Virus record (IMG/VR): IMGVR_UViG_3300033073_000736
Span: 1 to 64,000 of that record
DNA: 64,000 bases
Source of the DNA: a virus
Taxonomy: Duplodnaviria > Caudoviricetes
Strand: one strand, 5' to 3'
This document shows positions 775 through 24,310 of this stretch, in pieces. A program made the translations under genes and the position numbers. The stretch's first letter is position 1. Each line of letters starts with the position of its first letter. Below the pieces are notes generated by a model. That model ran no database searches. It was not told the origin of the DNA and saw only the letters and a program-made list of their open reading frames with translations.

Positions 775-1017
775 TTATTCCCCGTTAAGAATCGTGATAG
801 TGGACGTATTGAGATTCCCACCCATACTTTGTAGCTTATGGGCATATGCCCTAGCCGATTGCAGGCTACGGACATTCCCTGTCTGTTGATAATGGCGGAT
901 CATACGTCCCATAGCAAGAATAACTTGATTCTTACTCATTGTCTCCCAATGGATGCGCCCATTGATAAAAGGGACAATAGCCGACACTACGCAAACAAGA
1001 ATCAGATAAACAAGCAT
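775..1017 (-). CDS. hypothetical protein, hydrophobic N-terminus
   Basis: 80-aa ORF with AGGAGAG SD upstream. Confidence 0.6.
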   Translation of the reverse strand: MLVYLILVCVVSAIVPFINGRIHWETMSKNQVILAMGRMIRHYQQTGNVRSLQSARAYAHKLQSMGGNLNTSTITILNGE

Positions 1018-1081
1018 GTCTCTCTCCTAGTTAATCACGCTTTATTGCTAACACTCCTCAGAATGTTAGCTAAAAGAGTAA

Positions 1082-1231
1082 TCACGCTGGAAATACTTCT
1101 ACTGACCGGATAGTGCTAATGTCGTACCATTCGACATAATTGTCAATTCCTTTTTGACCGGCAACACAAGGGGAATTAGCACCGACCCAAGTTATATACT
1201 CATTGTTGATTATAACCTTAAAGCTTTTCAT
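1082..1231 (-). CDS. small hypothetical early protein (MKSFKV...)
   Basis: The ORF-track ATG at 1276 overlaps the -10 box of a promoter, so the internal ATG at 1231 with an AGGA SD is preferred. Confidence 0.55.
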   Translation of the reverse strand: MKSFKVIINNEYITWVGANSPCVAGQKGIDNYVEWYDISTIRSVEVFPA

Positions 1232-1274
1232 ATCCTGCCCCTTGTCGGCTTGTTTGCCGTGTTTTGATAGTGTC

Positions 1275-1303
1275 ATTCTAGGCTTGCTTTGCTATCTTGT
1301 CTA
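1275..1303 (-). promoter_or_regulatory. sigma70-type promoter TAGACA-N17-TAGAAT
   Basis: Direct motif match with 17-nt spacer. Confidence 0.6.
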
Positions 1304-1664
1304 GCCTTTTGTGTGGCTAATTGTTATCGGATTGTAACAGGCTTTATCTCTCTCTCTCTTTATATAGCTATCTCGCGTTAACAGGCCGGACACAAAACAA
1401 GCCTATCAGTGTACAAGCGTACGCTATTGGGCAGGGGGACAACAGGGGGGGAGAGATGGGAAGATGAAAAGGACACCCAGGCTAGACACCCAGGCGGGTG
1501 CTAGTTCCCGAAATGCTCAAGATCATTGCGCCGCAAGGCTTCCTGGGAATGCAAGGAATGGAAAGGGAAGAAAACCAGGAAAATCCGGCTCATTAGGAGT
1601 AAAACACCCACCCCGGTAGTATGTACCGCCCGTCAAGCCCTTGCGGCAAAATTTTCTTAACAAA

Positions 1665-1726
1665 CCATCGGCTAACTTGAAAACTCCCCCTTTCTATCCA
1701 AAAATCGCCCTAGTCCCCAAATTTTC
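1665..1726. repeat. copy 1 of a ~60-bp intergenic repeat (CCATCGGCTA.CTTGAAAA..CCC...CCAAAAATCGC.CTAGTCCC)
   Basis: Near-identical to 5311-5374; degenerate third copy at 5381-5435. Confidence 0.8.
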
Positions 1727-1758
1727 TAGAAAACTTCCCTGTTTTCTGGGGCATTCCC

Positions 1759-1965
1759 TTAGAAATGTTCCACTTTAACTGTCTTCCCGTCTGGCAGGTC
1801 ATTTGCCGCGTCGATTACAGACTTGATAGAATCAAGGTCAATATCGTCAACGTCAATTCCCGTAAACTCGGCATAATCGTCTGCGTAAAACTTGCTTCGA
1901 TTGTCAAGGTAAAAGCCAAGCCCTGAAAAATCAATCGACTGTTGTGTGGCCGTCAATATAACCAT
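1759..1965 (-). CDS. acidic hypothetical early protein (MVILTA...)
   Basis: ATG at 1965 follows TGTGT-TATGAT and an ACAAACAACGGGG leader. Confidence 0.65.
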   Translation of the reverse strand: MVILTATQQSIDFSGLGFYLDNRSKFYADDYAEFTGIDVDDIDLDSIKSVIDAANDLPDGKTVKVEHF

Positions 1966-2069
1966 TATATGTCCCCGTTGTTTGTGTATGGCTTGCATCA
2001 TAACACAATACAAGCCATTTTGCCATAGAATTTGAAAATCTTTACCGCTTATCGTGGGGCGGTAAAATA

Positions 2070-2294
2070 TCAGGGCTTGATCTTCTCCCAAAACCAATAC
2101 TTTTCAACAAAATCTGAAACAGTTTTAACTGTGACAGGGCCGGACATTATAAGACTATCAGCCGTAGAACAAAAGCGGATTCTCTTGCGCTTAATCTCTA
2201 CCTTTACGGGGAGTGTTCTGCCACAACGACAAATAAAGCCCTTGTCGTCAAGTGTTGCACCGTACAATACAAGCGTATCGGAAATAATGTCCAT
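2070..2294 (-). CDS. hypothetical early protein
   Basis: 74-aa ORF co-oriented in the cluster. Confidence 0.55.
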   Translation of the reverse strand: MDIISDTLVLYGATLDDKGFICRCGRTLPVKVEIKRKRIRFCSTADSLIMSGPVTVKTVSDFVEKYWFWEKIKP

Positions 2295-2603
2295 TGGATT
2301 CTAGTCTCGGTTCAGTCTGTTACAGTGTTGATATGCTAACACAAAACAATTGAAGCCGCAAACAACCTTACCCTTGTTATAGTAAGTGTCAACAATAACT
2401 GGCTTGCCATTGGCAGCCGTTTTAACGACAAATTGTGTGCTTTCGATGCGGCGTGATTGTTTCATGCTTACACCATGTCAAAACATCCGCGCTATTGTGT
2501 TTTTCTATTGCAGGAACACAAAGGAAAAACATATAACGCTAATCGGGTATACAAATGTACTGCCCGGCACTGTTAGCGCCGGAAAGTATGTAAAATTGCA
2601 TTG

Positions 2604-2924
2604 TCAAAGCTTAACACGCTTTTTGACAATCTTAAACGGGTAAGGCTCATTATCCCGATATTCCTTAAGTGAACGCCTTGCATTTTCCAAAGTGGTTTCA
2701 GTGTTGACGCATTCCCACCCGTGACCGTAGCCATAATTTGCTTGAATTTCCCACTCTTCGCGAGTTTTCCGCTTGTATGGCAAGGCATAGGCGCGGCGAA
2801 CAGTAACGCAGCTGTCGTATCCATCATGGTTGACAAGAGAACGTAAAACGTAGTCTTTATCACAATCATCTGCGAAAGATACTGCGTCAATCTTTTTCCC
2901 GTTAAGGTAGACATTCCAAAACAT
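2604..2924 (-). CDS. hypothetical early protein
   Basis: 106-aa ORF directly downstream of a TTGACA promoter. Confidence 0.75.
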   Translation of the reverse strand: MFWNVYLNGKKIDAVSFADDCDKDYVLRSLVNHDGYDSCVTVRRAYALPYKRKTREEWEIQANYGYGHGWECVNTETTLENARRSLKEYRDNEPYPFKIVKKRVKL

Positions 2925-2957
2925 GATGTTTCTCGCTTACTTGTGTGAATGATTGCT

Positions 2958-2986
2958 AATTTATAGCAATCCTTTGCCCTTGTCAA
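2958..2986 (-). promoter_or_regulatory. sigma70-type promoter TTGACA-N17-TAAATT
   Basis: Direct motif match. Confidence 0.7.
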
Positions 2987-2994
2987 TCCTTTAC

Positions 2995-3465
2995 TCAATA
3001 ATCTTGCAGCAATTCACGCAACGTTTCTTGCTGCTTTGTGCTGAACAGGCGGCGCATTTGCTTACCAATGTCACAACAGGCATTATAAACACCAAGGGCT
3101 TTAATACTATCGTCATCAAACCCAAAGCCGCTACACCAGTCAGAAAAGCACTGATTGACGGCCTCAGAATCTAACAGGAGTGAATGCAAAATGCTTGCAA
3201 TGTGCGGCGCTACGGGCTTGCCTTTGTCCGTGTATCCGCAATTAACAAGGGTTTTTGGTTTGGAACGCAACCCCACCCCAGTATAATACTGGAAAATCTC
3301 CTCTTTTTTGTCTTTGTGCACCGTAACGCGCCATTCATCACACTTCCAATCATTGTCGCGAGTAGTTTCGCCAACAAGCGATACAGTGTAATAAATCCCA
3401 TATTCATTCAACAGGGAGACGATTGCTTTGTTAGCCTGTTCTGTGGTGAGTTGTTCGGTTTGCAT
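2995..3465 (-). CDS. conserved-looking hypothetical phage protein
   Basis: 156-aa ORF with GAGG SD and its own promoter. Confidence 0.8.
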   Translation of the reverse strand: MQTEQLTTEQANKAIVSLLNEYGIYYTVSLVGETTRDNDWKCDEWRVTVHKDKKEEIFQYYTGVGLRSKPKTLVNCGYTDKGKPVAPHIASILHSLLLDSEAVNQCFSDWCSGFGFDDDSIKALGVYNACCDIGKQMRRLFSTKQQETLRELLQDY

Positions 3466-3503
3466 GATATACCTCTAGCTTGGTTGTGTTGTTCAATGTG
3501 GCA

Positions 3504-3533
3504 ATTATGCCTGTGTGTATAGCAATGTGTCAA
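3504..3533 (-). promoter_or_regulatory. sigma70-type promoter TTGACA-N18-CATAAT
   Basis: Motif match followed by an AACAACACAAC leader. Confidence 0.65.
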
Positions 3534-3553
3534 CTGTTTTTCGCTTGTTTTCG

Positions 3554-4171
3554 TCAGAAAATAGCGCCATCTTCCGTAAACTGGTATTCATTGCACAAGA
3601 TCATTTCGTCTACCTGTTCATCTGACGTGAGATAATCATATTCAGCCTCAAGGCTTTTATAAATGTCCCTTGCCAAGTCGCGGAAAATGTCGGCACATTC
3701 ATCTTCAAGCCCTTGCGGAATGTCGTAACGTTCGCCATGCCCTTCAATGTACACCGATACACTAAAGCGCATTGTCATTTCGTGGCAATAACGGCCATTT
3801 TGCGAAATGTCAACATTCACGCCGTAAAAATTAGGCTTTTGCATTTGCGTTAAACGCTTGCAAATGTCGTGCATTTCTTTCCATTGCGGGAACTCTTTTT
3901 TAAGGGATTGCGACCCTCCCTTTTTGTAAGAATATGTCCCTGTGAACGATGCGCCGTCTCCTTGACTCCAAAACCCGGAAAACATGATGCGGCTAATATC
4001 AAGCCCAAACAATTTGCAAGCGGTTGTGTACTGGTCATATACACATTCCCACCAATCATAGTCAAGCCCTTGACTTTTCCACCAGTCCCGTGCCTTTTCT
4101 TTGGCGCTATCGCTCAATTCATCGAACGTGAAAACTTCTGTTTCTTTGATCATCACGGAAGGCATGGCCAT
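3554..4171 (-). CDS. hypothetical protein (FDELSDSAKEKAR.WW / FSGFWSQGDGASF family)
   Basis: 205-aa ORF with GAGG SD; motifs recalled from a phage/ICE family that is often loosely labelled antitoxin; function unverified. Confidence 0.8.
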   Translation of the reverse strand: MAMPSVMIKETEVFTFDELSDSAKEKARDWWKSQGLDYDWWECVYDQYTTACKLFGLDISRIMFSGFWSQGDGASFTGTYSYKKGGSQSLKKEFPQWKEMHDICKRLTQMQKPNFYGVNVDISQNGRYCHEMTMRFSVSVYIEGHGERYDIPQGLEDECADIFRDLARDIYKSLEAEYDYLTSDEQVDEMILCNEYQFTEDGAIF

Positions 4172-4204
4172 TTCCTCGCTGGTTGTGTTGTTTCAATACC
4201 TGCC

Positions 4205-4233
4205 ATTGTATGCTATCAAGACAATACAGGCAA
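4205..4233 (-). promoter_or_regulatory. sigma70-type promoter TTGCCT-N17-TACAAT
   Basis: Motif match followed by an AAACAACACAAC leader. Confidence 0.7.
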
Positions 4234-4261
4234 GCGTTATTTGACTTAAAAGCGCAAGATT

Positions 4262-4447
4262 TTAAATCCTCCCGCCCATTTCGTACTTATCTAAAGCATT
4301 CCGCACAAAATCCACAAAGCTAATCCCCCTGCCTTGCATTTCTGCAATCTTGTTGATCCGTTCAATGTCAAGGCATTTGTTGATATTCAAACGGACGGGA
4401 AATTGCTTGTAAGCCGAGAAATCTTGCTTTTTCTTGTGTTCGCTCAT
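4262..4447 (-). CDS. small putative ribbon-helix-helix DNA-binding protein
   Basis: QFPVRLN strand followed by two amphipathic helices ending SFVDFVRNALD; ATGA overlap with the upstream ORF. Confidence 0.5.
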   Translation of the reverse strand: MSEHKKKQDFSAYKQFPVRLNINKCLDIERINKIAEMQGRGISFVDFVRNALDKYEMGGRI

Positions 4448-4632
4448 TTGCTTTGCTCCTTAACATGCTTATTTAAAGCCCTTGCCGCGTCTTTATCCCA
4501 GCAAAGGAAAAGCCAATTGATACAATCATCCGTATTACTGAAATGACGCAATTCTTTGATACGCTCATCTGATAGCAAAATCTTGCCGTTACTTTCCCAG
4601 CAATGCCAGTGGTTAAAGATAAATGGCTTCAT
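4444..4632 (-). CDS. hypothetical early protein
   Basis: 62-aa ORF with GAGGAAGG SD and AACATACAAC leader. Confidence 0.65.
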   Translation of the reverse strand: MKPFIFNHWHCWESNGKILLSDERIKELRHFSNTDDCINWLFLCWDKDAARALNKHVKEQSK

Positions 4633-4720
4633 GGTTGACCTTCCTCACGTTCTGTTGTATGTTCGCGGCTTATCGGAACTGACAAGCCGCTTGATGTTTT
4701 GAATGATAGCGGATTGCTAT

Positions 4721-4918
4721 CTATGCGTCAACAGGTTTGTACTGCTTTGCTAAAAAATCATCACAATGGTATCCGAAAATGTGCAGGTCATAATTCGGAT
4801 GATTAGGGTTTGACGTATCGAGCATGTGGCGGGGAGTATCAGACAACTCATTAACAGATTGCCGTACTGCCTCCTTGATAAGACGCTTCACTTCTTTAGT
4901 GTTGTAAATTGCGCTCAT
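4721..4918 (-). CDS. hypothetical early protein
   Basis: 65-aa ORF; first gene of the leftward cluster. Confidence 0.65.
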   Translation of the reverse strand: MSAIYNTKEVKRLIKEAVRQSVNELSDTPRHMLDTSNPNHPNYDLHIFGYHCDDFLAKQYKPVDA

Positions 4919-8674: not shown

Positions 8675-8841
8675 TGCCAGCAAATGTTTCTGAAGTTGAA
8701 GTGAACATCACGGTTTGTGTAAGCGACACTGGAACAGTGGATTGTTTTGCTGGTGATAGATTTGTTAACAGGTTCAAGTACGAGGCTTGGCTGAAGGAAA
8801 AGAAAGAGAGTGGGCGATTGCTACGACCACTATATCCTTGA
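8674..8841 (+). CDS. small hypothetical protein (MPANVSEVEV..., 55 aa)
   Basis: Read by hand; below the ORF-track cutoff; TGATG coupling to the upstream gene. Confidence 0.5.
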   Translation: MPANVSEVEVNITVCVSDTGTVDCFAGDRFVNRFKYEAWLKEKKESGRLLRPLYP

Positions 8842-11669: not shown

Positions 11670-11945
11670 ATGCTTTCACAAAAGATGCAGATGAAAATTA
11701 GTCTTGTTGCTCATGCCATGGTGACATCTGATTTCTCAATGATGTGCAATCCACGGTTTCGTGGTGAGAAGTTTGAATGGCACAAGTTTACAGCAATGGT
11801 AGTGGGTCGCATCAAGTCTGAGCTTTTCATCTATTTCCGAGAAGATCAGAAGATCACGAAAGAAATGCTGGACTTTGCTCAAGATGAATGTGAAAGGTTG
11901 TGTGACAAGATGTTAAGTAATTCTGGATTTCTTGAGGATGAATAA
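11670..11945 (+). CDS. hypothetical protein
   Basis: GAGG SD; stop overlaps the primase start (TAATG). Confidence 0.65.
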   Translation: MLSQKMQMKISLVAHAMVTSDFSMMCNPRFRGEKFEWHKFTAMVVGRIKSELFIYFREDQKITKEMLDFAQDECERLCDKMLSNSGFLEDE

Positions 11946-14575
11946 TGGCAGATGTGCTGCGTCACGAACAATGTCCGCAATGTGCAGCTAACGGGAATGA
12001 CCGAAGCCATGACAACATGGCTGTTTATTCCGATGGCGGGAAGCATTGCTTTGCTTGTGGTTATCATGTATTTGGAACAGAAGATTGGAATGAAGAGAGT
12101 ATGAGTGTAGAAAACATTAAAGATTTTAGTGAAGAATCAAAACAGAAGATTAAGGACAGCACGTCCACTAAAGGGAAAGGGTATCGTGGGTTGGATGATA
12201 AAATCACTGGCCCGTTCGGTGTTCGTTACGAATATGATGAATCCACTGGTGCTGTGGCAAAGCAATACTATCCTGTGACTATCAAGGGAGAGTTGAGTGG
12301 TTACAAGATTCGTAAGCATCCTAAGTCATTCTTGTCCGTTGGTGAGACAGGGAAAGTATGTGACCTGTTTGGTCAGTTCAAATTCAAGACTGGCGGGAAA
12401 TATGTGTTGATTGCTGGTGGTGAGTGTTTTCCGGGGCATGTGGAGGTTCTTACAGAGGATGGTTTTGTACGATTTGACAACCTTGAAAAAGGTGTGAAAG
12501 TCTACCAGCACAGTTTTGATGGTAGCGGGGACTTTGTTGTACCTTATGCTTATACTGAGAAAAACTATAGTGGTAACATCATCCACACAAAGTCGTCTCG
12601 GTATGATGTTGTTTGTACAGATAACCATAATTTGGTCTATATTACACAGACCAATAAAGTTATTGTACAACCAGCATCTCAACACTTTTCAGTCGGCTGG
12701 AGCCTTCCCGTTGCGAGCAACTATTCTGGGAACGGGATAAACCTTACTAATGATGAAATTGCACTGGTTATTGCAATTTGTGCCGATAGTAAACTTGACC
12801 ACCGGGTTAGGACTAATAAGCAAGCTCATTTTGCATTTGTAAAAGAGCGAAAAATTACTCGACTTAAGGGGATTCTTGAACGGCTTGAAATTCCGTATAC
12901 CTCTTATACCAGTACTTGGGCAGAGGGCAAGACTTATACAACTTTTAATCTAAAGATTCCTGATTATGTGTCAGATAAGTTTTTACCTGTGTCTTGGTTG
13001 ACAGATGCCAATAAAGAGCAGGCAGAGTTTATTCTCAATGAAATTATTCATTGGGATGGAAATCTTGTGAAAGAACGCGACGCTTTTGAGTTCAACAGCA
13101 AGCATAAGCGAGAAGTGGATTTTGTACAAGCTCTGGCTGCTTTGACGGGGCGATATGCTGCTGTTCGATTCCGAAAAAATCAGTACGGAGAATGGTGGAG
13201 TACACGAGTAAGTGGGAAAAAGAACAAAGTTTCGTGCCAGTCTATCAAAAAGACAACCGAGCACTTTAATGGTAAGGTATACTGCGTGTCTGTTCCGACA
13301 GGAATGATTGTTGTGCGGAATAACGGGAAAATTGCAGTTGTGGGGAATTGTGATCAGCTTTCTGCTTATCAGATGCTGCGTGAATATCAACTTAGTAAGA
13401 GTGGCGGGGAGGATTATGCTCCCATTGCTGTCGTCTCCCCAACAATTGGAGAGAATTGCAAGAAGCAGATTCAGAAACAGTACGACTTTCTTAACCAGTT
13501 TGAACGTATTGTTGTTGGTTTTGATAATGATGAGGCTGGACGTAAGGCTACTGAAGATGTAATTGATGTCCTTCCTCGCGGTAAGGTGTGGATTGCCAAT
13601 TGGAGTTATAAAGACCCCAATGAATATCTGGTTAATGGAAAAAGCAGGGAGTTTATTCGGGATTTTTACAATGCTGAAAAACATACACCAGCAGGTGTTA
13701 TTGCTAGTGACAAAATCTTTGAAGAAGTGCTGAAGCGGGCAGAAAGTGACAAACTTCCATTTGCACCATTTCTTGATGGATTGAATGAAATGCTTGCTGG
13801 TGGTATCACTTACGGATTTATTGTCAACATTCTTGCCGGGTCAGGATGTGGTAAGTCTGCACTCATCAATGAAAATGTTATTCATTGGACTAAGAAGTTA
13901 GATGTCAAGGTGGGTGTTGTTAGTTTGGAAGCCGATGCCGGATACTACGGCGAACAGCTTCTTAGCCGATATATTGGTAAGAAGATTGCATTAATTGACA
14001 ACAAGGAGGATAAGGTAAAGCTGCTTACTTCTGACGATACAAAGCGACTGGCACATGAACTATTTACGAGTGCGGATGGAAGTCCTTCATTCTATATCCT
14101 TGATGATCGAGGTGATTTCAGTCAGTTGCAGGAAAAGATTGAAGAATTGGTTGTTGCCTTCGGTGTACGTGTGATCATTATTGATGTTATCAGTGACGTT
14201 TTTGCTGGAATGACAATTGAACAAGTGGACAAATGGATGCAGTGGGAGAAGTGTCTTGTCAAGCAATACAATTGTATATTGGTGAATATCGCTCATGTTC
14301 GCAAAGCATCTGGTGGTGAACAAGCAGGCAGTCAAGGGGCGTTCCTTACTGAAGAAAGCATTCTTGGGAGTGGCAGTCAATTCCGAAGTGCAGGGATTAA
14401 CATCTCTTTGCAACGGGATAAGAATGCTGAAGATGAGGTTGAACGCAACACTACTTACGTACATCTTTTGAAGTCTCGTGACACTGGTATGACAGGGAAG
14501 GCTTGTGAAGTATACTACGATCTAAAGAGTCATACGTTGTATGATAAGGAATACTACTTCTCTCATGTGACTTGA
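11945..14575 (+). CDS. T7 gp4-like primase-helicase precursor containing an intein
   Basis: Zn ribbon CPQC...CFAC; TOPRIM GGE|CD and FDND; helicase Walker A AGSGCGKS and Walker B IIID. Confidence 0.95.
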   Translation: MADVLRHEQCPQCAANGNDRSHDNMAVYSDGGKHCFACGYHVFGTEDWNEESMSVENIKDFSEESKQKIKDSTSTKGKGYRGLDDKITGPFGVRYEYDESTGAVAKQYYPVTIKGELSGYKIRKHPKSFLSVGETGKVCDLFGQFKFKTGGKYVLIAGGECFPGHVEVLTEDGFVRFDNLEKGVKVYQHSFDGSGDFVVPYAYTEKNYSGNIIHTKSSRYDVVCTDNHNLVYITQTNKVIVQPASQHFSVGWSLPVASNYSGNGINLTNDEIALVIAICADSKLDHRVRTNKQAHFAFVKERKITRLKGILERLEIPYTSYTSTWAEGKTYTTFNLKIPDYVSDKFLPVSWLTDANKEQAEFILNEIIHWDGNLVKERDAFEFNSKHKREVDFVQALAALTGRYAAVRFRKNQYGEWWSTRVSGKKNKVSCQSIKKTTEHFNGKVYCVSVPTGMIVVRNNGKIAVVGNCDQLSAYQMLREYQLSKSGGEDYAPIAVVSPTIGENCKKQIQKQYDFLNQFERIVVGFDNDEAGRKATEDVIDVLPRGKVWIANWSYKDPNEYLVNGKSREFIRDFYNAEKHTPAGVIASDKIFEEVLKRAESDKLPFAPFLDGLNEMLAGGITYGFIVNILAGSGCGKSALINENVIHWTKKLDVKVGVVSLEADAGYYGEQLLSRYIGKKIALIDNKEDKVKLLTSDDTKRLAHELFTSADGSPSFYILDDRGDFSQLQEKIEELVVAFGVRVIIIDVISDVFAGMTIEQVDKWMQWEKCLVKQYNCILVNIAHVRKASGGEQAGSQGAFLTEESILGSGSQFRSAGINISLQRDKNAEDEVERNTTYVHLLKSRDTGMTGKACEVYYDLKSHTLYDKEYYFSHVT
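12425..13348 (+). mobile_element. intein (308 aa) with LAGLIDADG homing endonuclease domain
   Basis: Begins CFPGHVEVLT.DG, has blocks IAICADS and IIHWDG, ends VYCVSVPTG..VVR....AVVGN followed by +1 Cys. Confidence 0.92.
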
Positions 14576-14590
14576 CATCCTCTCTAATTA

Positions 14591-14620
14591 GCCCGACAAT
14601 ACGTTCGGGCTTTTTCTTTT
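14591..14620 (+). terminator. Rho-independent terminator
   Basis: GCCCGA-N8-TCGGGC followed by TTTTTCTTTT. Confidence 0.8.
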
Positions 14621-14634
14621 TATGGAGAACAATT

Positions 14635-14853
14635 ATGCGACCTTCGCCTAAGTATTGGTGGGATTTTCGTGACAGTTACATCATCGTTGAAAGCGATCAT
14701 GATGAGTTCCCGCTGCTTGCAAAGTGGTATTTTTTCAACAACCAAGAAGCAGGACACTTGATTGATTGTGCCGAAGAACTCATTTCTGATTTGACGGCTG
14801 GAAGGACTGACCCACGAAAACTGTACAAACAGTTTCTTAAAGAAGGAGCATAA
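14635..14853 (+). CDS. hypothetical protein
   Basis: GGAG SD before ATG 14635. Confidence 0.7.
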   Translation: MRPSPKYWWDFRDSYIIVESDHDEFPLLAKWYFFNNQEAGHLIDCAEELISDLTAGRTDPRKLYKQFLKEGA

Positions 14854-14855
14854 TC

Positions 14856-16514
14856 GTGAACCTCAAACATTACGTTGCTGACATCGAAACCTACCCCAAT
14901 TGCTTCACCATTGCCGTCAAGCGTGTTGATGGGAAGCATTCCAATGTTTTTGAATGTAGTGAACAACAGAATGACGTTTCTCGCATCCTGAAGATGCTGG
15001 ATTGGTTGCATGACAATGATGGGTGTATGGTGGGGTTCAATATCATCAACTTTGATTATCCTGTGCTACACGAACTGATTCAGAAGCGCAACATCCTCCC
15101 AAAGACAGGGAAAGGAATAGCTACAATGATGTATCGTGCTGCACAGAAGCAGATTGACAGTTTTAAAGGGGACGGGTTTGGTAACACTGTCAAGGAAGAT
15201 GAACGCTATTTCAAGTTGATTGACTTGTATAAGATTCATCATTTTGACAACAAGGCTCGTGCAACATCACTGAAGATGCTTGAGTTCAACATGCGTGAAC
15301 AGAACATTTCCGACCTTCCGTATCCGGTTGGTAGCACACTTACACCTGAACAGATTGCTGTGTTGAAAAAATACAATATGCACGATGTCAACATGACTTT
15401 GGCTTTCTACAACAAGTCACAAGAACAGATTCAATTCCGTGAACAACTTAGCGCAAAGTACAATCGTGACTTCACCAATCACAACGATACCAAGATTGGT
15501 AAGGATTACTTTATCATGCGGCTTGAAGAAGAAGGTATTCCTACATCTATTGTAAAACATGGTAAGAAAACACTGATTCAAAGCAAGCGTCCGTTCATTG
15601 ACATCCGAGATTGTTTGTTCTCGTATTACGACTTTGAACGTCCAGAGTTTATTGCAATTGTTGAATGGTTCAAGCAACAACGTATCACTGAAACAAAAGG
15701 TGTATTCACTGATATTCTTGAGTACAAACTTGGGGATGTTGCCAAGTACGCCGAGATGGTTGTGAAGCGAAAGAAACTCAAAAGCAAGCCAACTGAAGCA
15801 GAGGAAAAACAAATAAAGAAAGAGAATCCACTGTGCTGGGTTGAGGAAGTGGAATTGAAGGCCAAGGAAACTAAAGCCAATGGTGGAGGGTTTAAGAAAG
15901 CCTACTGGCATTGTTGGAGAGTGGCTGAGACGTTGAATGTTGTTGTGGATGGTTTCAGATTTGACTTTGGTACAGGTGGTATTCATGGAAGTATTGAAAG
16001 CAAGATTGTGAAGGAATCTGAGAATTGGAAGATTCGAGATTACGATGTAGAATCTTTCTATCCCAACATGGCAATTAGTAACCGAGTCTATCCCGAACAC
16101 TTGACCGAGAAGTTCTGCGACATCTATGCAGATGTTTTCAATCAGCGCAAGATGTACAAAAAGGGTACGGCTGAGAATGCTATGATGAAACTCGCATTGA
16201 ATGGCGTCTATGGTGAAACGAATAACCAATATAGTGTGTTCTATGACCCAAAGTATACAATGACAATTACAGTTGGTGGACAACTTACATTATGTTTGCT
16301 TGTAGACATGTGGATGCGAGAAGGGTTGAAATTCAAAATGATAATGGCAAATACAGATGGTGTTACAATTGCTGTACACAAAAAACACTATGAAATGTGT
16401 GATACAATTGCTAAGAAATGGGAGGATATAGTGAAATTAAAACTGGAGAGTGTTGACTACTCAGCAATGTATATCCAAAATGTAAATTCGTATATTGCCG
16501 TCTATAAGGAGTAA
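14856..16514 (+). CDS. family B DNA polymerase, N-terminal part (3'-5' exonuclease plus palm/fingers)
   Basis: Exo DIET, FNIINFD and YNMHDV; pol motifs DVESFYP, KLALNGVYG and NTDG; ends IAVYKE*. Confidence 0.93.
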   Translation: MNLKHYVADIETYPNCFTIAVKRVDGKHSNVFECSEQQNDVSRILKMLDWLHDNDGCMVGFNIINFDYPVLHELIQKRNILPKTGKGIATMMYRAAQKQIDSFKGDGFGNTVKEDERYFKLIDLYKIHHFDNKARATSLKMLEFNMREQNISDLPYPVGSTLTPEQIAVLKKYNMHDVNMTLAFYNKSQEQIQFREQLSAKYNRDFTNHNDTKIGKDYFIMRLEEEGIPTSIVKHGKKTLIQSKRPFIDIRDCLFSYYDFERPEFIAIVEWFKQQRITETKGVFTDILEYKLGDVAKYAEMVVKRKKLKSKPTEAEEKQIKKENPLCWVEEVELKAKETKANGGGFKKAYWHCWRVAETLNVVVDGFRFDFGTGGIHGSIESKIVKESENWKIRDYDVESFYPNMAISNRVYPEHLTEKFCDIYADVFNQRKMYKKGTAENAMMKLALNGVYGETNNQYSVFYDPKYTMTITVGGQLTLCLLVDMWMREGLKFKMIMANTDGVTIAVHKKHYEMCDTIAKKWEDIVKLKLESVDYSAMYIQNVNSYIAVYKE

Positions 16515-16517
16515 AAC

Positions 16518-17174
16518 GTGAATCCTAAATTATTACCAAAAAGTGGTGGAATATATTCCATTAAAAACACCTTGAATGGTAAAATATATATTGGCAGAAC
16601 AAGATCGTTTTATAGAAGATGCCACCAGTACATATATGATTTTAACAATAGATCAATCGGGCATATCAATGATCATCTTTTTAGAGCTATGAGCAAATAT
16701 GGGCTGGAGTCATTTGCATTTGACATCGTCGAACATTGTGATATTGATATTCAACCAGAGCGAGAGTTATACTGGATCATTGCACTGAACACAACAGATA
16801 GAAGGTTTGGGTATAACATTAGATTAGATGTTGGCGGAGCCATGGTAGTATCCGAGGAGACATCTCATAAAATAAGTAGTAATTTAAAAACTCAATGGGC
16901 TAGTGGCATAAGAGATAACCATTCAAAAAAATTAAAGGAATCATGGTTATACAGAGATAGATCAGCACAAGGTAAACTATTCTCAAAGTATTTGACTTTG
17001 TATGAATATATTGTAAATTTCAATAGCGATAATGAGATTATTGCGGATTACAAGAAACTTTGCGAAATGGGCCTGAAGTCAGCACTAAGTTCTTTCTATA
17101 GAAAGAAGTCTGATACTATTGTCTTGAAAGGTATCACTATTCACAGGAGAGCAGTCAATGAAAGTGAAACGTAA
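16518..17174 (+). mobile_element. free-standing GIY-YIG homing endonuclease inserted in the DNA polymerase gene
   Basis: GIYSI...KIYIG...R...E...GYN; AT-rich; abuts both polymerase fragments. Confidence 0.9.
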
Positions 17175-17598
17175 AGGGGCATATCAGTACGAAGGATTGG
17201 GTTGGTATCAAAATCAGGGCGGATTGGTAATTCCTATGGCCGCTGAAGCCGCAATGTTATATGGAAAAGATGTGGAAGAATACATCCGTACACATGATAA
17301 TGATTGGGACTTCTTGCTTCGTACCAAAGTTCCACGGAATAGTAGTCTGGTGTTGGTGTATGAGTTTCACGAGGAAGAGCAACAAAACATCTGTCGCTAC
17401 TACATTGCTAAAGAAGGGGAAGGTGGAAAGTTGGTAAAAATCATGCCACCACTTGAGGAAGGTGGGGAGGATAGGCGACTCGGTATTGACACGGAATGGA
17501 CAATCCTCACTTGCAACGATATGAAAGATTTTGACAGAAGCAAGATGAACTATGATTACTACGTCACTGAAGCAAAAAAGTTGATACTGAATGCTTGA
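17158..17598 (+). CDS. family B DNA polymerase, C-terminal (thumb) part
   Basis: MKVKRKGAY.Y...W.QN...LVIP.AAEA...DFLLRTKVPR continues the polymerase; own AGGAGA SD inside the endonuclease gene. Confidence 0.85.
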   Translation: MKVKRKGAYQYEGLGWYQNQGGLVIPMAAEAAMLYGKDVEEYIRTHDNDWDFLLRTKVPRNSSLVLVYEFHEEEQQNICRYYIAKEGEGGKLVKIMPPLEEGGEDRRLGIDTEWTILTCNDMKDFDRSKMNYDYYVTEAKKLILNA

Positions 17599-17624
17599 CA
17601 CCTCACACAAGGATGTGTGATAAT
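17595..17624 (+). promoter_or_regulatory. sigma70-type promoter TTGACA-N18-GATAAT with a CsrA-consensus palindrome in the spacer
   Basis: TCACAC-AAGGAT-GTGTGA at 17603-17620. Confidence 0.6.
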
Positions 17625-17661
17625 TCTTTCATCGAAACAGCAACTGATTTGGAGAAACAAA

Positions 17662-17961
17662 ATGATCATCCGTGAAGCCTCTCTATGCCTTCGCTTTTAT
17701 ACATCAGATGGCTGGACTAGAAGGGATGTTGTTGAACTGTTATACGTGATGAACAAGAGTAATTCACCAATCTATCACTATGTTTGTCCTCGTTGGTTTA
17801 GCAATAATGACAAAGATGCCGAGTACCGAGGATTCTTGTATGAAGACGGGTTGGAACATCTTGACTGTGACTACTATGCTGTGTATCATCCAAATGTCGG
17901 ATTTAAGGGGGAGAAGTTGAAGCAACATACAATTATTCCTTTTGGCTCTAGCTCTGTTTGA
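17662..17961 (+). CDS. hypothetical protein
   Basis: GGAG SD before ATG 17662. Confidence 0.65.
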   Translation: MIIREASLCLRFYTSDGWTRRDVVELLYVMNKSNSPIYHYVCPRWFSNNDKDAEYRGFLYEDGLEHLDCDYYAVYHPNVGFKGEKLKQHTIIPFGSSSV

Positions 17962-17985
17962 CAATTAATTTTACAAATAAATTGA

Positions 17986-18013
17986 TTGACATTGGCTGGA
18001 AACGTGTTATATT
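17986..18013 (+). promoter_or_regulatory. sigma70-type promoter TTGACA-N16-TATATT (extended TG)
   Basis: Motif match in an intergenic gap. Confidence 0.55.
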
Positions 18014-23366: not shown

Positions 23367-24310
23367 TGCAACTAACAACGCCTGAATGGCTTGACAAATA
23401 TAAAGAACTGGTTGCATCTGGTCTTAGCCAGCGGCAGGCTTGTGCAATCCTTGGACTTGCTCGTGCTACAGTTTATGATACGTTGAAGAAGCAGCAAGAA
23501 ATGGACAATATCGCTACAGGGGAGAAGTCAAAGGGAATGCGTGTTCTTCTATGGGATATTGAGTCCGCCCCCCACCTCGGTTATTTCTGGTCACGATGGA
23601 AGCAGAACATCGGTAGCAACCAGATTGAGCAGGAAGGTGGGTACATGCTCAGTGCCGCATGGAAGTGGCTCGGAGAGGAAGAAGTGTTTCACGTTTGGGC
23701 AGATGACCCAGTACAAGGGAACGATGCCAATATCTGTGCAACCTTGTATGAGGTGATTGAGCAAGCTGATGTTATTATCGGACACAATCAAAACTCATTC
23801 GACTATCCAATGCTGAATGCGCGACTTGTACAGAATGGCTTCCCTCCGCTGAAGAATGTCAAGAAGATTGATACACTGCTAATTGCAAAGAAGAACTTTC
23901 GATTTGCAACGAACAAACTCGATGACCTTGGAAAGTATCTTGGTGTTGGGCGCAAGATTGATACTGGGGGGTTTGAACTGTGGCATCGTGTAATCACTGG
24001 GGATAAGGATGCTCTTGCTGAAATGGTGGACTACAACCGGCAAGATGTTGTTCTACTTGAGCGTGTCTATCTGAAACTGCGGGCATTTGATTACAATCCT
24101 GCTGCCAATGCCGGTCACTATTACAACGACAATCTTTCTCGTTGTCCTGTATGTGGTAGTAGTGATGTGGAAGAAACTGGTAATGCTTCCTACACCCCTG
24201 TCAGCAAGTTCGCAGAGATGGTTTGCAATGATTGTGGCCACCGAAGCCGGAAGCGACAGACATTGAATGACAAGGAAAAGCGATACAACATGTTAATCAC
24301 ACCAAAATAA
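23363..24310 (+). CDS. HTH + DEDD (RNase_H_2/YprB-like) 3'-5' exonuclease + zinc ribbon
   Basis: SQRQAC..LGLARATV HTH; WDIES, GHN..SFD and YNRQDV; CPVC...CNDC. Confidence 0.85.
   Translation: MMQLTTPEWLDKYKELVASGLSQRQACAILGLARATVYDTLKKQQEMDNIATGEKSKGMRVLLWDIESAPHLGYFWSRWKQNIGSNQIEQEGGYMLSAAWKWLGEEEVFHVWADDPVQGNDANICATLYEVIEQADVIIGHNQNSFDYPMLNARLVQNGFPPLKNVKKIDTLLIAKKNFRFATNKLDDLGKYLGVGRKIDTGGFELWHRVITGDKDALAEMVDYNRQDVVLLERVYLKLRAFDYNPAANAGHYYNDNLSRCPVCGSSDVEETGNASYTPVSKFAEMVCNDCGHRSRKRQTLNDKEKRYNMLITPK

Follow-up and report, generated by a model that had tools for sequence, protein, structure and literature searches.

The window analysed here, the first 64,000 nucleotides (nt) of the 83.5-kb IMG/VR virus record IMGVR_UViG_3300033073_000736 (Caudoviricetes; estimated to be 74% complete), carries on its plus strand a family B DNA polymerase (PolB) gene that is divided in two by a gene for a GIY-YIG homing endonuclease. 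The upstream part, chain A (14856-16514), has a GTG start and encodes 552 amino acids (aa) comprising the exonuclease, palm and fingers; its C-terminus reads YIAVYKE and is followed by a TAA stop codon at 16512-16514. The free-standing endonuclease gene (16518-17174; GTG start, 218 aa) begins 3 nt past this stop, and these three nucleotides are the sole non-coding sequence in a gap that the endonuclease otherwise occupies entirely. The downstream part, chain B (17158-17598; ATG start, 146 aa), opens with MKVKRKGAY and corresponds to the thumb. Its open reading frame (ORF) overlaps that of the endonuclease by 17 nt; the endonuclease stop codon falls within chain B, in another frame.

Each half is provided with a start codon and a Shine-Dalgarno (SD) sequence of its own. 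The SD of chain B, AGGAGA (17145-17150, plus strand), lies 7 nt ahead of the ATG, in the 3′-terminal part of the endonuclease ORF; the initial annotation, made from the DNA letters, had reported this element and all three ORFs, and each is present where it was described. The SD of the endonuclease gene, AAGGAG (16506-16511, plus strand), is placed 6 nt before the GTG at 16518 and is formed by AAG GAG (Lys-Glu), the two C-terminal codons of chain A. The same AAGGA-stop junction is found in three further loci (L007, L008 and L005). RNA folding gave no structure beyond that of shuffled sequences at the ribosome site of the endonuclease (z 0.30) and weak, non-significant structure around that of chain B (z -1.77), so that hairpin control of the kind associated with mobE of Aeromonas phage Aeh1 is not in evidence. 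Counts from a promoter and terminator scan within the operon matched those of shuffles. Directly 3′ of the chain B stop, in the interval 17595-17624, a 7-bp hairpin is followed by a T-rich run (17603-17620); both lie inside TTGACA-18-GATAAT, which of all sequences in the region comes closest to a promoter (11 of 12 positions).

The polymerase belongs to a clade with 13% identity to the solved PolBs. Pfam DNA_pol_B scored 11.9 bits, under its cut-off, PDB sequence searches with chain A and with a thumb profile returned no match, and a megablast of 14500-18000 against phage records was likewise negative. The fold is nevertheless that of family B: L016, the nearest of the uninterrupted relatives, was modelled with AlphaFold on a 35-sequence alignment, and the model, with a predicted local distance difference test score (pLDDT) of 89.6, matched the 9N, KOD, Tgo and Pfu polymerases with a Foldseek probability of 1.00 (E 2e-14). 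Chain A contains motifs A (DVESFYPN), B (KLALNGVYG) and C (NTDG), and chain B the KxY motif (KRKGAY, within KVKRKGAY), all four invariant in the family alignments; across the whole clade motif C is NTDG, with Asn in place of the first Asp. The exonuclease residues D9/E11 and FDYP are also invariant, and every family-invariant residue is kept in one or the other chain.

Both chains are exactly colinear with uninterrupted PolB homologues. These read YIAVY-T(N/D)G-KVKRKGAY at the site, and the window reads YIAVY-KE-stop before resuming as M-KVKRKGAY; three turn residues are swapped one for one and no residue is lost or gained. The PHROG 1252 profile (DNA polymerase) aligns to chain A at positions 53-508 (E 3e-140) and to chain B at 512-648. 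In the cultured phages Limnohabitans DC31 and Curvibacter P26059A the polymerase is a single ORF of 728-734 aa, and 79 of the 80 best IMG/VR relatives run uninterrupted through the site, in line with the continuity that the initial annotation had ascribed to related polymerases. The locus has the features of a 'gene in pieces', being contiguous in relatives, colinear in its halves and without loss of residues.

The break maps, on the L016 model, to the turn T550-D551-G552 that connects strand 544-549 (YIAVY) to strand 554-557 (VKRK). The predicted split point is accordingly placed in a β-hairpin turn directly before KxY, at the palm/thumb junction. By the domain limits of the KOD and Tgo enzymes, the thumb starts at KxY, so that 'thumb chain' is a fair name for chain B. 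A Foldseek search of the PDB with the thumb domain by itself gave nothing significant, so the label rests on the position after KxY and on the full-length model. When chain B was folded alone, residues 21-140 had block-mean pLDDT values of 91-96 and the final six residues 81; residues 1-20 reached 46-55, which suggests that the N-terminal strand may become ordered only once docked on chain A. Chain B shares 85-93% identity with the thumb of relatives in which the gene is uninterrupted (L014-L017), and 26 columns are invariant across 22 stand-alone thumbs.

The intervening gene encodes a predicted homing endonuclease with intact GIY-YIG catalytic residues. It matches Pfam PF01541 (E 6.6e-9), its catalytic domain aligns to that of I-TevI (1LN0/1MK0; E 7e-9), and residues Y13, Y24, R34, E83 and N100 are invariant in five endonucleases of the site. 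The C-terminal half has no Pfam match. Its first codons (AAC GTG AAT CCT AAA, 16515-16530) agree with the start of chain B (AAA GTG AAA CGT AAA, 17161-17175) at 12 of 15 positions, a resemblance that may be the remnant of a target-site duplication or may be due to chance.

The limits of the insertion can be drawn by comparison with the closest relatives, the IMG/VR contigs L014-L016, which are uninterrupted and share 82-89% nucleotide identity with the window over the primase-polymerase region. Alignment of L016 to the window ends at 16506 and resumes at 17160, and the uninterrupted L016-type sequence around the site is ...NNYIAVYTDGKVKRKG.... The inserted cassette (16507-17159, plus strand) thereby amounts to 653 nt replacing 7 nt, a net gain of 646 nt. 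Upstream of it, the last ~72 codons of chain A (16296-16511, plus strand) depart from the relatives: residues 1-400 are 90-92% identical to L016 and L014, whereas residues 481-552 are ~50% identical to L016, L014 and L017, which among themselves reach 80-88% over this stretch. The tract 481-552 shares signatures with other split alleles (L007 and L008), and it is foreign to the lineage of the window, having come in together with the endonuclease gene.

An independent sequencing run yielded a second genome, L097, with the same architecture and a 98% identical endonuclease at the same site. Although the two differ by 7% at the nucleotide level, their identity rises to 97-99% over 16301-17100, amid flanks of 83-95%. 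Synonymous divergence (dS) between them is low there, at 0.026 for the tract and 0.07 for the endonuclease gene, and high outside, at 0.43 further upstream and 1.04 for the thumb. Because the endonuclease gene and ~215 nt upstream are near-identical amid diverged flanks, they represent a recently transferred block, and its footprint is that expected of homing with one-sided co-conversion. Mobility is indicated both by the presence/absence polymorphism at a single site and by the co-converted flank. With a near-identical cassette and co-converted flank on two diverged backbones, a homing event seems to have been caught almost in the act.

The same site is split in many other phages. A search with chain B recovered 265 stand-alone proteins; among the matches listed, ~55 of 120 start with M-K-[VI]-K-R-K-G and ~35 stand-alone thumbs have a leader of 14-17 residues before GKVKTKG. 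In all eight metagenomic contexts fetched, the N-terminal part of the polymerase is followed by an endonuclease gene and then by the thumb, the endonuclease being of the HNH_3 family in five and of the GIY-YIG family in three. An exact-pattern census of IMG/VR added 17 further loci, with 9 GIY-YIG genes, 7 HNH_3 genes and 1 locus without an endonuclease gene; eight of these inserts were covered by a Pfam check. Three cultured phages, Yersinia fEV-1, Acinetobacter phiAB441 and Klebsiella KpTRp1, have homologous GIY-YIG genes at the site, with 41-47% identity to that of the window, and including L007 and L098 the same-site homologues are 41-62% identical. Dozens of lineages likewise have an ATG where the Gly codon would stand, preceded by an SD. 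Since the arrangement recurs in independent samples, the split is not a chance occurrence, and the site would seem to be a recurrent target for two unrelated endonuclease families.

Other forms of interruption were observed within the clade. A second class of stand-alone thumb (L012:4501-4986 and L013:4501-5007) has a 14-17-residue leader before SGKVKTKG and an HNH_3 gene upstream, and the corresponding chain A ends in IAIKGL or VAIKEDKI, a slightly different solution at the same site. At L033:1992-3042, the polymerase ORF ends at motif A (ELIDADV) and homology returns ~1 kb further on; judged from the sequence, this is a second, different interruption site. The region 827-4756 of phage phiAB441 (L095; PV420835) is annotated as four 'DNA polymerase' pieces and a GIY-YIG gene, so that there is at least one further break upstream of the hairpin site, in addition to a polymerase-labelled ORF downstream.

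Several mechanisms could in principle reconcile this arrangement with a single polymerase chain. Phage polymerase genes often hold group I introns with GIY-YIG or HNH ORFs, and if the insert were such an intron, nearly filled by its endonuclease ORF, splicing would restore one mRNA and one polypeptide; the bases at its ends, U at 16505 and G at 17160, are even compatible with an in-frame join, though such a pair is expected by chance. We consider this very unlikely. A scan of 16200-17500 with Rfam at E values up to 10 found no intron family and returned just two chance snoRNA/viral matches, although Rfam models can miss introns with large ORFs. The endonuclease ORF fills 16518-17174, leaving 3 nt of non-coding sequence, and five homologous inserts show protein-like conservation along their full length. 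The upstream part always stops right at the junction, and a downstream exon would need neither the conserved ATG-for-Gly replacement nor an SD, yet dozens of lineages have both. Protein splicing fares worse. An in-frame intein is impossible because chain A lies in frame 0 and chain B in frame 1. A fractured gene, in which split-intein halves are joined by protein trans-splicing with an endonuclease gene between them, has precedents among polymerase genes, both from metagenomes and from the jumbo phage MIJ3 (PMC2677866, PMC6892783), but we give it hardly any credence here: alignment to uninterrupted homologues leaves no room for an N-intein (~100 aa) or C-intein (~35 aa) extension on either half, chain B starts with MKVK and offers no Cys/Ser/Thr +1 nucleophile, and the end of chain A and the start of chain B coincide exactly with the continuation in those homologues. 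This colinearity refutes trans-splicing and rules out a split intein. Polymerase expression would thus appear to involve neither RNA nor protein splicing, and the description of a PolB gene split by a free-standing GIY-YIG gene, without intron or intein, holds on the empty Rfam scan, the differing frames and the exact colinearity.

The split might instead have inactivated the enzyme, leaving a defective variant or a phage that depends on another polymerase, either that of its host or one encoded in the unsequenced 26%. The record is ~74% complete, and the cassette is recent, so that decay might not yet be visible. Both chains are intact, however, with all family-invariant residues present; plaque-forming phages in culture share the split, as do many diverged lineages; the independent genome L097 has it at 7% nucleotide divergence with a dN/dS of 0.02-0.03; and no other polymerase was found in the 83.5 kb. 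Inactivation is in our judgement improbable. As the record is metagenomic, an assembly artefact or chimeric contig could also be suspected, but an identical architecture with a 98% identical endonuclease came from the independent run, and numerous other assemblies, along with finished phage genomes, show this architecture too, which makes an artefact exceedingly unlikely.

The explanation we favour, and consider likely, is that an endonuclease cassette was inserted into the phage PolB gene, whose two chains are translated apart and reassemble as proteins. The GIY-YIG cassette (16507-17159) would have entered the replicative PolB gene in the three-residue hairpin turn before KxY. It would have homed to this backbone from a diverged donor allele that was split beforehand, carrying along ~215 nt of upstream polymerase sequence through co-conversion. 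The gene now consists of three tightly packed cistrons for chain A, the endonuclease and chain B. Chain A ends at a stop codon supplied by the cassette. The endonuclease would be translated from its GTG behind an SD that the two final codons of chain A provide, and chain B from the ATG that has taken the place of the turn's Gly codon, using the SD inside the endonuclease gene. Chains A and B would then associate without a covalent link to give an active polymerase, in which the palm sheet is completed by pairing of VKRK, the opening strand of chain B, with YIAVY, the final strand of chain A. A two-subunit enzyme is suggested by the cultured phages with the same split, by the retention of all family-invariant residues in the two chains, by the published split PolBs that are active, and by the 83.5-kb record, in which neither a PolA nor a second PolB was found. 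A 318-aa ORF elsewhere in the window weakly matches the exonuclease portion of PHROG 1252 (23501-23908; E 2.9e-6) and probably encodes a separate DEDD exonuclease rather than another polymerase.

Besides the sensitivity of the Rfam models, several points weigh against this interpretation. The dN/dS between the two split genomes, the window and L097, is 0.02-0.03 for both chains, but the cassette is much younger than its flanks, so the divergence from which this low ratio derives accumulated mostly before the split, and the ratio is no proof of selection in the split state. Expression and assembly of the two chains, and their stoichiometry, are presumptive, as are the activity and cleavage site of the endonuclease, and another polymerase could lie in the missing part of a record that is 74% complete.

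The initial annotation had also proposed that the endonuclease gene has become hard to lose since it carries the SD of the downstream chain. The SD of chain B does lie inside that gene; on the other hand, the gene is a recent arrival, is absent from close relatives, and in one genome the polymerase is split without it, which leaves the idea weak. This genome, L117 (IMGVR_UViG_3300038722_000002, an 83.5-kb contig), has at 8700-8770 a split polymerase with no endonuclease gene. Its chain A ends in YIGVFNEG-TAA and overlaps the ATG of chain B by 11 nt, and the SD of chain B, an AGGAG within Ile-Gly-Val codons, lies 7 nt before that ATG. The arrangement resembles a 2-nt deletion of the continuous form. 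It may reflect either a genuine two-cistron polymerase free of any endonuclease gene or an assembly error of 2 nt. Within one split sub-lineage a common flank signature (an extra residue, MANTDG, VNSYI and VYK[ED]-stop) accompanies GIY-YIG and HNH_3 genes alike. As the signature is the same under either occupant, this suggests that endonuclease genes replace one another within an already split allele.

Split replicative polymerases and endonuclease-split genes have been described before. In the T4-related Aeromonas phages 25 and 44RR, gene 43 is divided into 43A and 43B (Petrov, Ratnayaka and Karam 2010, cited through PMC2988022 and PMC3061061); a free-standing seg-like endonuclease gene, seg43(25), lies between the two in phage 25, and the products co-purify and are active (PMC2988022). 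The locus in the window is likewise a family B replicative polymerase in two cistrons, with a free-standing GIY-YIG-type endonuclease gene between them as in phage 25. It differs in that the T4-like split is located in the finger tip, whereas that of the window is in the palm/thumb hairpin turn before KxY; phage 25 also has an untranslated spacer and an intron, and the locus in the window has neither. The window polymerase also belongs to a different clade, undetected by Pfam DNA_pol_B, and its site is occupied, across many lineages, by members of two endonuclease families. Aeromonas phage Aeh1 provides another case, in which nrdA is split by the HNH endonuclease gene mobE and assembly was shown biochemically (Friedrich et al. 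2007; PMC3045599). The initial annotation had invoked Aeh1 nrdA as its precedent, and PMC2988022 confirms it as one. There too a free-standing endonuclease gene splits an essential gene, and the Aeh1 polypeptides reassemble without splicing; the interrupted gene and the endonuclease family are different, and assembly, demonstrated in Aeh1, is for the window an inference.

Family B polymerases in two chains are also known without any endonuclease. The naturally split PolB of Methanothermobacter (Kelman et al. 1999) and an engineered split Pfu enzyme are fully active (PMC3061061). The Methanothermobacter split lies in the palm, ~83 residues past the finger split of Pfu, with the two genes 85 kb apart and no endonuclease gene, and neither enzyme is split at the hairpin before KxY. 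With respect to the endonuclease itself, the catalytic domain is homologous to that of I-TevI from the T4 td gene (E 7e-9) with all catalytic residues kept; I-TevI is intron-encoded, and the window endonuclease is free-standing. The order of N half, endonuclease gene and C half is shared with fractured genes (PMC2677866), from which the window differs in having halves without intein residues at either end. A PolB split beside a free-standing endonuclease is thus already published for Aeromonas phage 25, and the present site is occupied in phages deposited in GenBank; by its sequence, the locus is the same kind of event as the known splits, at a different position in a different PolB clade. No description of this split site was found in the searchable literature.

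A second element was observed in the neighbouring primase/helicase ORF (11945-14575), where window positions 12424-13346 form an in-frame insertion of ~308 codons that begins with Cys and ends with Gly-Asn before a Cys. It is absent from L014-L016, whose primase genes align on either side. The insertion is consistent with an intein, and on that reading the replication genes of this genome would contain at least two mobile elements.

These observations carry an annotation warning for this polymerase clade, where 'hypothetical protein' is the routine label both for the short C-terminal gene and for that of the endonuclease (fEV-1 g46c/g47c, KpTRp1), with the result that the polymerase is annotated as truncated. 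The fEV-1 paper names Gp48c alone as polymerase; g46c encodes the thumb chain of the polymerase rather than a hypothetical protein, and the annotated start of g47c (L094:2601-3269) removes the GIY-YIG motifs, the true start lying ~93 nt upstream (MKPNKFLKGRSGIYGI...). The locus further adds a well-documented natural split point for PolB, a palm/thumb hairpin turn next to the primer-binding KxY motif, which is useful for polymerase engineering and for understanding thumb docking. As a tentative proposal, which we consider possible but less likely than not, the hairpin turn before KxY may be a long-standing landing pad at which the polymerase has adapted as a stable heterodimer. If this is true, the two-chain enzyme would be an evolutionary end state, not a transient wound.

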